From sequence record PQ571289: a stretch of DNA of 64,000 nt; one strand, written 5' to 3'. The translations under genes and the position numbers were made by a program. Shown here piece by piece: positions 61,460-62,501 of the stretch; the stretch's first letter is position 1; the number at the start of each line of letters is the position of its first letter. This DNA comes from Escherichia phage EF1-1. Below the pieces are notes generated by a model that worked only from the letters and a program-made list of their open reading frames with translations, was not told where the DNA came from and ran no database searches.

Positions 61460-61542
61460 GATGAGTTGGCTGAATGGTTTAAGCGGCGGACTGTTAATCC
61501 GTGTTCGAAAGAACGATATAGGTTCAAATCCTATACTCATCG
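61460..61542 (+). tRNA. atypical class-II tRNA, anticodon GUU as parsed (Asn) with long variable arm
   Basis: acceptor GATGAGT/ACTCATC, 3-bp D stem, anticodon loop CTGTTAA, variable hairpin GTTC-GAAA-GAAC, CCA encoded. Confidence 0.55.
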
Positions 61543-61552
61543 CCAGAATTAT

Positions 61553-61629
61553 GGACTTGTAGAGTTAAGGTAAACCCCCAGTCGCCAAGAGGCTTCTGGA
61601 ATTGCAGGTATCGAATCCTGCCGAGTCCC
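61553..61629 (+). pseudogene. tRNA-like sequence, probably degenerate
   Basis: acceptor GGACTTG/CGAGTCC pairs but T-loop is 8 nt, anticodon stem weak, no CCA. Confidence 0.3.
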
Positions 61630-61635
61630 AGCTTT

Positions 61636-61707
61636 GCTCCTATAGTATAATGGCTATTACAACGGTTTTGTAATCCGTGGATCTCTGTTCGATTCAGAGT
61701 GGGAGCA
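61636..61707 (+). tRNA. tRNA-Thr (UGU)
   Basis: acceptor GCTCCTA/TGGGAGC, anticodon loop TTTGTAA, T-loop TTCGATT, CCA encoded. Confidence 0.75.
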
Positions 61708-62019
61708 CCAACACAACATTAAGAGCACTGTGATTGATCGTCGTATCCTGTGCACAAGGTCTGCTCGAAAGACAGTGTTCTTAGTATTGTGTTGATCACA
61801 AAAAGACTCACCTGAAACTTGACCGGAGTAGGGTTGGATGGGGTAAAGAAGAAGCGGATTCTCCCATCGACGTGAGAGTTTTCCAGTGTTGCAAGCGACA
61901 CCCAGGAGATTAATCACAACCGAACGTAGGGCTAGTCACCCAACGGGATACTCGTCACTGTCCCACTCAATAAAACTATTGACAACCAATACTAAAATGT
62001 AGTATAGTAAAGATGTAGG

Positions 62020-62090
62020 GCGTTCTTGGTGTAGCGGTAGCATTCCGTCCTTCCAAGTCGGCGGCACGAGTTCGATCCTCGTAGGACGCT
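62020..62090 (+). tRNA. tRNA-Gly (UCC)
   Basis: acceptor GCGTTCT/AGGACGC, anticodon loop CTTCCAA, CCA encoded; promoter TTGACA-N18-TATAGT at 61979. Confidence 0.7.
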
Positions 62091-62191
62091 CCAAATTATT
62101 TAATAAAGGGTTGCCAGAAAACTTTCTCTTTTACTCATGGTTTTCTCCTTCTCTCACACCTCTTCTGGTTGCCCTTCATTAAATGATTTAT

Positions 62192-62264
62192 TGGTTTGTA
62201 GTGTAGTCCGGTAGCACACGACACTTTGACTGTCGTAGGTTTGGTTCAAATCCAGACAGACCAG
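62192..62264 (+). tRNA. tRNA-Gln (UUG)
   Basis: acceptor TGGTTTG/CAGACCA, anticodon loop CTTTGAC, T-loop TTCAAAT, CCA encoded. Confidence 0.75.
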
Positions 62265-62272
62265 CCATATAA

Positions 62273-62346
62273 CGGAATTTAGCTCAGTTTGGTAGAGCAT
62301 ACGCTTTGGGAGCGTAGGGTCGCAGGTTCGAATCCTGCAATTCCGA
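62273..62346 (+). tRNA. tRNA-Pro (UGG)
   Basis: acceptor CGGAATT/AATTCCG, anticodon loop TTTGGGA, CCA encoded. Confidence 0.8.
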
Positions 62347-62355
62347 CCAATTTAA

Positions 62356-62426
62356 TGTTTCGTAGTTCAATGGTAGAACCCACGACTGATAATCGTGAGA
62401 CACAAGTTCGATTCTTGTCGAAACAA
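62356..62426 (+). tRNA. tRNA-Ile (GAU)
   Basis: acceptor TGTTTCG/CGAAACA, anticodon loop CTGATAA, CCA encoded. Confidence 0.8.
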
Positions 62427-62431
62427 CCAGT

Positions 62432-62501
62432 TTCCCGTTAGACTTACAGGATAAGAGTTCCACAGCTTATTGTGATGCTGGTTCGAATCCAGCACGGGAT
62501 A
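62432..62501 (+). pseudogene. tRNA-like sequence with aberrant anticodon arm (anticodon undetermined)
   Basis: good T arm GCTGG-TTCGAAT-CCAGC and acceptor, but no 5-7-5 anticodon arm; no CCA. Confidence 0.35.

Follow-up and report, generated by a model that had tools for sequence, protein, structure and literature searches.

A tRNA cluster with an unusual asparagine tRNA

We analyzed a stretch of 64,000 nucleotides (nt) from Escherichia phage EF1-1 (sequence record PQ571289; the whole stretch is referred to as the window), with emphasis on a tRNA gene with the anticodon GUU and on two tRNA-like elements in the same tRNA cluster. The window derives from a phAPEC8-like coliphage (Phapecoctavirus, Stephanstirmvirinae): the 2.3 kb around the cluster display 96.5% identity to the corresponding region in Escherichia phage phAPEC8, with matches in many further Phapecoctavirus genomes as well. 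ARAGORN called 11 tRNAs in the window, all on the plus strand and all 11 encoding the CCA at their 3' end, as had been stated in a preliminary description of this DNA made from the sequence alone. The features at the center of this study are the following.

61460-61545, plus strand: tRNA-Asn(GUU), 86 nt, with 7/5 acceptor/T arms, G73 and encoded CCA (from ARAGORN, Rfam, the fold and the annotation of relatives)
61493-61495, plus strand: anticodon GTT within the loop CTGTTAA (from the fold and the sequence)
61503-61517, plus strand: 15-nt variable region, with the hairpin GTTC-GAAA-GAAC (61503-61514) followed by three unpaired nt, GAT (from the fold)
61553-61629, plus strand: element 1, an anticodon-less tRNA-like RNA without CCA (from the fold, homologues and a covariance model)
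62432-62501, plus strand: element 2, a second anticodon-less tRNA-like RNA, with A73 followed by CCC (from the fold, homologues and covariation)

The gene at 61460-61545 has the structure reported in the preliminary description, where a GUU anticodon had been noted on a class-II-like scaffold. It scores 62 bits against the Rfam tRNA model (RF00005; gathering score 29), with 12 extra nt inserted into the variable region, and its minimum-energy fold in RNAfold is a cloverleaf with the 3-bp D stem, the 5-7-5 anticodon arm and the GTTC-GAAA-GAAC hairpin of that description; the 3' end reads ..ACTCATC-G-CCA. With 15 nt and a 4-bp stem capped by GAAA, the variable region displays class II architecture—defined as more than 10 nt with a stem-loop. 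The same description had allowed for a covariance model folding 61460-61542 as an ordinary tRNA of another identity; this did not occur, as both programs returned Asn/GUU, and with ARAGORN, Rfam and RNAfold concurring on GUU, another fold or identity for the gene was ruled out.

An extra-arm tRNA-Asn widespread in phages and nearly absent from cells

The GenBank records of phAPEC8-like phages annotate the counterpart of 61460-61545 as tRNA-Asn. A sensitive BLAST search with the window gene recovered tRNA-Asn genes, 82-86 nt long, from unrelated groups of coliphages, represented by phi92 (Justusliebigvirus), T5 (Demerecviridae), Klebsiella phage KpS8 (Mydovirus, Vequintavirinae) and the T4-like Serratia phage X20. 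In all of them, GUU and G73 are accompanied by an encoded CCA and by a short variable-region hairpin, and together with that of phAPEC8 they belong to the same class as the window gene. Their hairpins differ in sequence while the pairing is constant: the phi92 hairpin, GAAC-GAAA-GTTC, is a strand swap of the one in the window, and the T5, KpS8 and X20 genes include GTC-GAAA-GAC and GAGC-ATTA-GCTC. The window gene and that of T5 differ in hairpin length (4 bp against 3 bp) and in their acceptor stems. Altogether, intact homologues with covarying extra-arm hairpins occur in at least five phage lineages.

For a broader census, we used a pattern that joins the GUU anticodon loop to a T arm 15-26 nt farther on (ACTGTTAATCC N15-26 GGTTCRAWTCC). 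A scan of IMG/VR with this pattern gave 87 stretches, and 87 of the 88 matches were called tRNA-Asn by ARAGORN; they comprise 59 unique sequences of 79-91 nt with highly diverse acceptor and D arms. The addition of the window and database genes yielded a set of 60 unique sequences, in which the variable region measures 11-20 nt. A hairpin of at least 3 bp was found in 51 of the 60 variable regions, as compared with 15.7 +/- 3.2 (maximum 24) over 200 shuffles, and the set holds 48 distinct hairpin sequences. The hairpin loop is 4 nt long in 45 members and is GAAA in 27 and another GNRA in 8 (35 GNRA loops in total). This excess of pairing, together with the number of distinct hairpins, argues that the hairpin is under selection with its sequence free to vary.

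The same pattern was run over one genome per species from 185,579 bacterial and archaeal species (596 Gb), where only 22 stretches matched. These included 10 tRNA-Ser(UGA) false positives, 3 non-tRNAs and 3 odd alphaproteobacterial sequences with no ARAGORN call, and the genuine cellular extra-arm tRNA-Asn genes number about eight—three of them within dense arrays of 10-21 tRNA genes of a phage-like kind. Candidatus Peribacteria were rejected as a cellular home of the class, since all 10 of their 10 matches are tRNA-Ser(UGA), with the pattern straddling the anticodon stem and the Ser arm. The three alphaproteobacterial sequences come from metagenome-assembled genomes of the Hyphomicrobiaceae type (L221 at ~3187, L225 at ~4926 and L226 at ~5577); they are related to each other, and in addition to the GUU-type loop CTGGACTGTTAATCCAG each carries a hairpin capped by GNRA and a T arm. 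With identical flanking sequence, IMG/VR holds 18 long-form loci and 63 ordinary short-form loci, and the unrestricted short pattern gives at least 120 matches. Because nearly every cellular genome has a class-I tRNA-Asn, the contrast between cells and phages spans orders of magnitude. The extra-arm tRNA-Asn is a structural class widespread in phages and nearly absent from cells, and this contrast suggests a selection specific to the phage lifestyle.

The object itself is not new, as these genes stand as plain tRNA-Asn in hundreds of GenBank records. The annotations and papers searched on the phage genes named above mention neither an extra arm nor a restriction to phages. Moreover, the class-II-like architecture on an Asn tRNA, its near-restriction to phages and the two accompanying conserved anticodon-less mimics appear to be undescribed in the literature searched.

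Identity of the extra-arm tRNA

For E. coli asparaginyl-tRNA synthetase (AsnRS), the identity set is made up of G73 and all three bases of the anticodon (Li, Pelka & Schulman 1993, as reviewed in PMC9976931), and G73 is an antideterminant for the leucyl- and tyrosyl-tRNA synthetases (LeuRS and TyrRS; PMC9976931). Both AsnRS elements are present in the window gene, G34-U35-U36 at 61493-61495 and G73. Across the 60-sequence set, G73 occurs in 56 members and U1-A72, typical of bacterial tRNA-Asn, in 38. The anticodon stem-loop of 61460-61545, GGCGGACTGTTAATCCGT (GGCGGACUGUUAAUCCGU), is identical to its counterpart in E. coli tRNA-Asn. The E. coli tRNA-Asn genes (asnT/U/V/W, class I) are like the window gene in G73 and in the codons read, and would share its synthetase; however, their variable loop measures 5 nt as opposed to the 15-nt region of the phage tRNA, their first pair is U1-A72 and not G1-C72, and their D arm is of class I where that of the phage tRNA is class-II-like.

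With G73 barring LeuRS and TyrRS, seryl-tRNA synthetase (SerRS) is the sole remaining class-II-scaffold enzyme able to compete for this tRNA. An acceptor-stem element of tRNA-Ser is G2-C71. SerRS is reportedly sensitive to the length and orientation of the variable arm in the work of Himeno and Asahara. We compared the arm geometry over all tRNAs of the fetched phage loci. Of the 58 extra-arm Asn tRNAs that were folded, 47 combine a 3-4-bp stem with 3-4 unpaired nt on its 3' side, whereas phage tRNA-Ser has stems of 4-7 bp with 0-2 unpaired 3' nt in 99 of 105; the bases left unpaired 3' of the arm stem number 1-2 in tRNA-Leu and 2-3 in tRNA-Tyr. The extra-arm geometry is Tyr-like, not Ser-like. 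The window gene, with 3 unpaired nt, a 4-bp stem and A2-U71, departs from tRNA-Ser, with its 0-2 unpaired 3' nt, a stem usually of 5-7 bp and G2-C71; this last element is present in T5 and is not conserved across the class. Bacterial class II tRNA-Tyr resembles the window gene in its short variable stem (3-5 bp), its 2-3 unpaired 3' nt and its GUN anticodon, but differs in having A73 and GUA instead of G73 and GUU; A73 likewise sets tRNA-Leu apart.

A different identity has nonetheless to be weighed, namely that of a switched class II tRNA whose Tyr, Ser or Leu scaffold is still charged by its own synthetase, such that AAY codons would specify Tyr, Ser or Leu, or else be ambiguous between Asn and Ser. 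There are parallels in the nematode nev-tRNAs (Hamashima et al., cited in PMC7954030) and in tRNA-Ser anticodon variants; both nev-tRNAs and allo-tRNAs (Mukai 2017, PMC5389517)—the latter also found in phages (PMC5389517)—combine a long arm with a class I anticodon, as the window gene does. The window D arm, TGGCTGAATGGTTTAAGCG, is class-II-like, with a likeness of 0.85 to phage Ser/Tyr D arms and of 0.74 to class-I Asn. A tRNA-Tyr(GUA) gene lies 6 nt upstream and is identical at 66 of 86 positions (56 of 86 for E. coli tRNA-Asn), and a single substitution converts GUA to GUU. In addition, SerRS ignores the anticodon, G73 also occurs on tRNA-Ser, and the variable arm of the phage's own tRNA-Ser(GCU) is only 4 bp long and GAAA-capped. 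On the other hand, nev- and allo-tRNAs keep the Leu/Ser identity of their scaffold and hence recode, whereas the identity elements of the window gene match its anticodon; moreover, allo-tRNAs have 8/4 or 9/3 acceptor/T arms, as opposed to the 7-bp acceptor and 5-bp T stem seen here. GUU and G73, the AsnRS set, are kept together in the 56 of 60 class members, the A73 required by TyrRS and LeuRS is absent, and the 3-4 unpaired 3' nt contrast with the 0-2 in tRNA-Ser of the same phages, while the Ser acceptor elements vary between the window and T5. Members such as KpS8 join a class-I Asn D arm (likeness 0.89) to the hairpin, so that the class is set by Asn features and not by a Tyr/Ser body; and a proteome-wide change of Asn to Ser or Tyr would cost lytic phages of four families dearly. 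We consider such a switch highly improbable. The preliminary description had been right about the scaffold of the GUU tRNA, but its suggestion of a non-canonical decoder is unlikely in view of the AsnRS set, the G73 block on LeuRS and TyrRS, and a geometry unlike that of tRNA-Ser.

T5 has a single tRNA(GUU), which is of the extra-arm type, and tRNA-Asn figures among the listed T5 tRNAs, in a list that cites papers of the 1970s-80s (PMC4810235). Over the 58 open reading frames (ORFs) of the window, AAT and AAC are used 29.7 and 19.8 times per 1000 codons, respectively, making a demand for a GUU tRNA plausible. We conclude, from sequence features, that 61460-61545 probably decodes Asn in the ordinary way and bears a structural addition specific to phages.

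Origin of the extra arm and its occurrence on other isotypes

A single origin of the class from tRNA-Tyr was not supported: the nearest D arm is a class-I Asn arm in 26 members, a Ser arm in 19, a Tyr arm in 13 and a Leu arm in 4. Given these mixed affinities, either the class is polyphyletic or the D arm has co-adapted to the extra arm. In either case, gain or retention of the hairpin seems to have happened more than once.

The same IMG/VR loci contain short variable-arm hairpins on Cys, Thr, Trp, Glu, Met, Ile, His, Gln, Gly, Pro and Asp tRNAs, all normally of class I, with a tendency to the same 3-4 unpaired 3' bases. Such extra-arm class-I tRNAs are far commoner in loci with the extra-arm Asn tRNA than in loci picked for class-I Asn. 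Several of them occur together in individual IMG/VR loci of uncultured phages—e.g., L025, L029, L046, L062 and L090, with Cys, Thr, Pro, Asp, Ile, Met, Glu, His and Gln among them. T5-like phages, T5 itself included, carry an 87-nt tRNA-Thr(UGU) with the variable hairpin GGA-GTAA-TCC (L013, 4406-4492; L288, 6134-6220, from T5_ev212). Expansion of the variable arm thus seems to be a wider habit of phages, with Asn as the main example in those of enterobacteria.

Two conserved families of tRNA-shaped elements

The two elements at 61553-61629 and 62432-62501 had been described as having good acceptor and T stems but no CCA, and this holds: the first has an 8-nt T loop, and the center of both is a plain hairpin. 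Neither element was called by ARAGORN, and neither had a match at E<=1 among 4227 Rfam models. Their central loops, of 4 and 6 nt, depart from the tRNA cloverleaf with its 7-nt anticodon loop, and with central loops of 3-6 nt the elements cannot decode.

Element 1 is closed by a 7-bp acceptor stem, GGACTTG/CGAGTCC, and its 3' end reads ..GAGTCC-C-AGC. A conserved TAGAGTTAAGGTAAACC stands where the D arm would be, and in place of the anticodon arm lies a plain hairpin, CCAG..CTGG with an inner GCC-AAGA-GGC (4-nt loop), followed by ATT. The T arm, GCAGG-TATCGAAT-CCTGC, has a 5-bp stem and an 8-nt loop, and the folding z-score of the element is -3.0. Homologues lie directly 3' of tRNA-Asn in phi92-type and T5-type phages. 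Their acceptor stems covary (GGACTTG/CGAGTCC, TGCTTG/CAAGCA, TCTGTG/CACAGA), as do their T stems (GCAGG/CCTGC, GTAGG/CCTAC, GCTGA/TCAGC, ACTGA/TCAGT). The D-region motif, TAGAGTTAAG(G)TAAACC, is nearly invariant, and all share ATT followed by a T arm with the 8-nt loop YATCRAAT; the central hairpins are unrelated by lineage, with CCAG..CTGG, TCTAGA-ATTT-TCTAGA, GGTAGC-CAACCA-GCTATC and, in one T5 relative, AGCAGC..GCTGTT. In the alignment, 94% of cells are paired, and sliding the partners lowers this share to 32-43%. Of the 17 pairs, 11 have changed at both positions. A covariance model of the family found 24 copies at 73-94 bits in ~860 kb of phage loci, below which only ordinary tRNAs appeared (<=38 bits); the matches at 34-38 bits are ordinary tRNA-Arg and initiator-like tRNA-Met. 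An IMG/VR pattern scan returned 28 stretches, all T5-like or from Stephanstirmvirinae. The T5 copies end in ..CACAGA-T-A-CCA, with the CCA encoded.

Three further observations concern this family. In the T5 relatives L007 and L020, the slot of element 1, ~20-110 nt 3' of tRNA-Asn, is occupied by a sequence that resembles tRNA(CAU), has an unusual D region (TAGAAGTTCTGGTGAACTC) and ends in T-ACCA, and the best match of the element 1 model outside the family is an initiator-like tRNA-Met (locus L050). The sequence hints at a derivation of element 1 from a Met/Ile2-type tRNA. In addition, GUUAA at 61564-61568, within the invariant single-stranded motif TAGA-GTTAA-GG of element 1, equals G34-A38 of the anticodon loop of the adjacent tRNA-Asn; this may be a coincidence, as the stretch also reads as a vestigial D stem-loop.

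Element 2 has a 6-bp acceptor stem, TCCCGT/ACGGGA, with an additional T.T mismatch, a mini D arm (CTTA-CAGGA-TAAG), the hairpin CACA-GCTTAT-TGTG (4 bp, 6-nt loop) in place of the anticodon arm, and a canonical T arm, GCTGG-TTCGAAT-CCAGC; its folding z-score is -2.5. It is 91-100% identical within Phapecoctavirus, 79-82% in Vequintavirinae (A7_1, W70, LTH01) and 77% in phiEB49, a 47-kb siphovirus of the Drexlerviridae. Its acceptor stems covary (TCCCGT/ACGGGA, TTCCGT/ACGGAA, GGCCCGT/GCGGGCC), its T stems are GCTGG/CCAGC or ACTGG/CCAGT, and the discriminator is A73. The mini D arm is invariant, within TAGRCTTAYAGGATAAGA, and the central hairpin varies in sequence and loop size by lineage (CACA-GCTTAT-TGTG, CACAACG-TAT-CGTTGTG, CGCAACG-TCT-CGTTGTG). 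Across the alignment, 96% of cells are paired and 6 pairs have changed on both sides. The Vequintavirinae and phiEB49 copies encode A-CCA, where those of Phapecoctavirus have CCC, CCT or CAT. The phiEB49 copy (locus L243, 599-675) is annotated as tRNA-Val(AAC), with a 4-bp stem and a 7-nt loop that shows an A34 anticodon; as a real tRNA, it is doubtful. Element 2 was rejected as a member of the element 1 family, since its 21 bits correspond to the level of an ordinary tRNA.

These patterns bear on the notion of decaying pseudogenes, raised in the preliminary description for all three genes. For the GUU tRNA, it is at odds with the intact homologues in at least five lineages and the 59 IMG/VR sequences. 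For the elements, it would mean dead tRNA genes that, through collapse of the anticodon arm, a T-loop insertion and loss of the CCA, linger between selected tRNAs with little time for decay. Several facts fit: ARAGORN and Rfam recognize neither element; phiEB49, the closest distant relative of element 2, keeps a 7-nt loop and the tRNA-Val annotation; a tRNA(CAU)-like gene occupies the element 1 slot in L007 and L020; the CCA is degraded to CCC, CCT or CAT in the Phapecoctavirus copies of element 2; and element 2 is conserved no better than the cluster average. Neutral decay, however, leaves uncompensated mismatches in stems, and the stems of both families (94% and 96% paired, with 11 and 6 double-changed pairs) remain paired across phage families at ~70-80% identity. 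The central hairpin is rebuilt with a new sequence in each lineage and never lost, and the 17-22-nt single-stranded or mini-D motif is near-invariant across families. Phage genomes shed useless DNA fast, and yet phiWec186, a natural Phapecoctavirus, has retained element 1 while a 42-codon ORF stands in place of its tRNA-Asn (locus L240, 1473-1601). We regard dead genes as quite an unlikely explanation. The IMG/VR locus L289 looks like the phiWec186 arrangement. On covariation and conservation, elements 1 and 2 are best described as two distinct conserved families of tRNA-shaped, non-decoding RNAs, each in several phage families.

Predicted transcription units and probable processing of the elements

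Three sigma-70 consensus-like promoters, all predicted and on the plus strand, frame the cluster (60438, 61025 and 61979), with the following sites next to the units discussed here.

61025-61054, plus strand: promoter-like site TTGACA-18-TAGATT with extended TG, 5' of a unit of the Ser(UGA)-like gene, Ser, Tyr, Asn, element 1 and Thr
61979-62008, plus strand: promoter-like site TTGACA-18-TATAGT (11/12), 5' of Gly, Gln, Pro, Ile, element 2 and Met
62702-62720, plus strand: intrinsic-terminator-like hairpin with a T run, at the end of the tRNA cluster

By these predicted sites, both elements lie inside promoter-to-terminator tRNA units, and the spacers between them and the flanking tRNAs measure 2-7 nt. 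The two elements keep a 12-bp acceptor-T stack, a minimal RNase P substrate. RNase P would cut each element at its own 5' end and again where the next tRNA (tRNA-Thr or tRNA-Met) begins, releasing RNAs of 70-80 nt that would then be trimmed and possibly CCA-tailed by a host enzyme. E. coli trims phage tRNA precursors that lack CCA and adds the tail, as established for T4 tRNA-Pro/Ser, so that the missing CCA is no barrier for the elements. Once excised, the RNAs may mimic tRNAs as a decoy or sponge for some protein that binds tRNA, or they may be processing modules in cis; regulatory decoys, put forward in the preliminary description, are a possible role for the two anticodon-less elements. 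Charging of the mimics by an enzyme of the alanyl-tRNA synthetase type was rejected, as the G3.U70 pair is absent in both.

If the elements were processing punctuation in cis only, the acceptor-T minihelix would recruit RNase P, freeing the 3' trailer of the upstream Asn or Ile and the 5' leader of the downstream Thr or Met, and the excised RNA would be inert. The short spacers fit with this notion, as do the high degree of structure in other cluster spacers, whose closing stems abut tRNA ends, and the fact that the 12-bp stack is the best-conserved structural part. Yet neighbors in the same cluster (Met-Arg, Tyr-Asn and Gln-Pro-Ile) lie 2-6 nt apart without such a module, and punctuation needs neither invariant D-region motifs nor an 8-nt T loop nor a maintained central hairpin; a CCA, as encoded in some copies, matters only to an excised RNA. 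Punctuation alone is a conceivable but still rather unlikely account of the elements. A mimic acting in trans is favored, with punctuation in cis as its chief rival, since a cis spacer would hardly account for the invariant motifs, for a T loop of 8 nt or for the CCA that some copies encode, and several adjacent cluster tRNAs do without such a module.

The two mimics have a counterpart of sorts in the species 1 and 2 RNAs of T4 (rnaC and rnaD), which are likewise small and stable and are encoded among the tRNA genes of a phage, with only a few nt between them and a tRNA. In its general build, rnaC is similar to both elements—a canonical T arm closed by an acceptor-like stem, with no anticodon arm—but rnaC and rnaD measure 139 and 119 nt as opposed to 70-77 nt, differ in internal architecture and show no detectable homology. 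A homology of element 1 in particular was rejected, its model (R1) scoring 9 bits on the T4 region. The function of T4 species 1 RNA is still unknown (PMC9697503).

Possible role of the variable-arm hairpin

Transcribed as part of a polycistronic tRNA unit, 61460-61545 would be charged by the host AsnRS via GUU and G73, and the charged tRNA would read AAU and AAC as asparagine. The short, usually GNRA-capped hairpin would leave decoding intact while altering the shape of the tRNA core. As the decoding elements are untouched, the hairpin would have to act on something that recognizes the tRNA body, and the most likely benefit would be a phage copy no longer equivalent to the host tRNA-Asn for some tRNA-binding factor. 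Candidates are a tRNA-targeting defense nuclease or toxin, or a phage factor acting on host tRNA. Among the roles we infer for the hairpin, we rank first that its shape lets the tRNA escape from, or be told apart by, a factor that binds tRNA; simple stabilization comes second.

Phage tRNAs are known to rescue translation from the retron-Eco7 PtuAB, PrrC and PARIS systems, either by overexpression or by changes in the anticodon loop (PMC11555353). Examples are the T5 tRNA-Tyr against retron-Eco7, tRNA-Lys against PrrC and PARIS, and anticodon-loop variants of mycobacteriophages, all of which differ from the host copy and protect translation (PMC11555353). In the window tRNA, by contrast, the loop is unchanged and the difference resides in the variable arm. 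No defense system acting on tRNA-Asn was linked to the extra arm in the literature searched. A still broader idea, tentative and on balance unlikely, is that variable-arm expansion is a general phage strategy to make tRNAs structurally orthogonal to those of the host, with a small GNRA-capped hairpin on tRNA-Asn and, in other phages, on Thr, Cys, Trp, Glu, Met, Ile and His tRNAs. Translation would be untouched, and the phage copy would become invisible to, or distinguishable by, a nuclease or toxin that recognizes the tRNA body—whether a host defense or the phage's own weapon against host tRNA; the adjoining mimics might then be decoys titrating the same class of effectors.

Taken together, we assign a probability of roughly 0.7 to the joint reading of a working extra-arm tRNA-Asn accompanied by two conserved tRNA-mimic families. 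A number of points weigh against it or narrow it. Charging, processing and a benefit to the phage, which we infer, go beyond the observed structure, conservation, covariation, distribution and identity elements. As a class II synthetase, AsnRS approaches the tRNA from the variable-loop side, where an extra arm could hinder charging. Hairpin insertions engineered into the variable loop of E. coli tRNAs gave only marginal activity (PMC7590224); set beside natural retention with a tightly constrained geometry, though, this poor activity speaks for a benefit rather than mere tolerance. As phiWec186 lacks the tRNA-Asn, the gene is dispensable. As to evasion, the anticodon loop, the usual nuclease target, is unchanged in the window gene, and a T5-like tRNA-Asn was used only as a negative control in the study of phage-tRNA rescue (PMC11555353). 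The census rests on one pattern, so that its counts are lower bounds and the contrast between cells and phages is approximate. The covariation of element 1 comes from three deep lineages with micro-variants, and that of element 2 is modest, its D hairpin never varying. Finally, older T5 papers may already describe the extra-arm tRNA-Asn or the tRNA-like families.

Other features of the cluster

A further tRNA-like gene at 61063-61152 (plus strand) is of the tRNA-Ser(UGA) type and encodes G-CCA, with no ARAGORN call. It has a 7-bp acceptor stem, a good T arm, a 4-bp anticodon stem (CGGT-CTTGAAA-ACCG) and the variable arm GCTT-GAAA-GAGC; its best Rfam match is tRNA-Sec, at 37.4 bits and under the gathering score of 47. 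The phi92 orthologue (locus L003, 839-928) is annotated as tRNA-Ser(TGA) with a pseudogene flag, and in Mt1B1_P17 the tRNA-Tyr carries such a flag as well. At 62508-62586 (plus strand) lies a 79-nt tRNA(CAU) with a long D arm (5-bp stem GAGGA/TCCTC), an A1xC72 mismatch and U73, which is labeled 'tRNA-Pseudo-CAT' in RefSeq records, yet is kept in phi92 and VEcB. Additionally, the long non-coding spacers of the cluster (60477-60674, 60830-61013, 61244-61368 and 61709-61794) each close upon themselves via inverted repeats of 17-35 nt, the ends of which abut tRNA ends—e.g., 61244-61262/61350-61368, exactly between tRNA-Ser and tRNA-Tyr. They may be structured spacer RNAs or processing domains. Rfam matches in the region to YrlA, RyhB, Plastid-ycf2 and others are far below threshold and lie over ordinary tRNAs.

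Implications for phage tRNA biology

Long variable arms in bacteria are held to be restricted to tRNA-Leu, tRNA-Ser, tRNA-Tyr and tRNA-Sec. The window adds a fifth, phage-borne case, which recurs in T5, phi92, T4-like and rV5-like phages and in dozens of uncultured ones, at a time when phage tRNAs are gaining recognition as tools of counter-defense. Extra-arm tRNAs may also provide scaffolds for tRNA engineering. Furthermore, annotation pipelines overlook elements such as the two mimics or label them pseudogenes. The mimics add small, conserved and unannotated RNA families to well-studied phages, and with them a puzzle that the T4 species 1 and 2 RNAs have posed for 50 years reaches further phage families.

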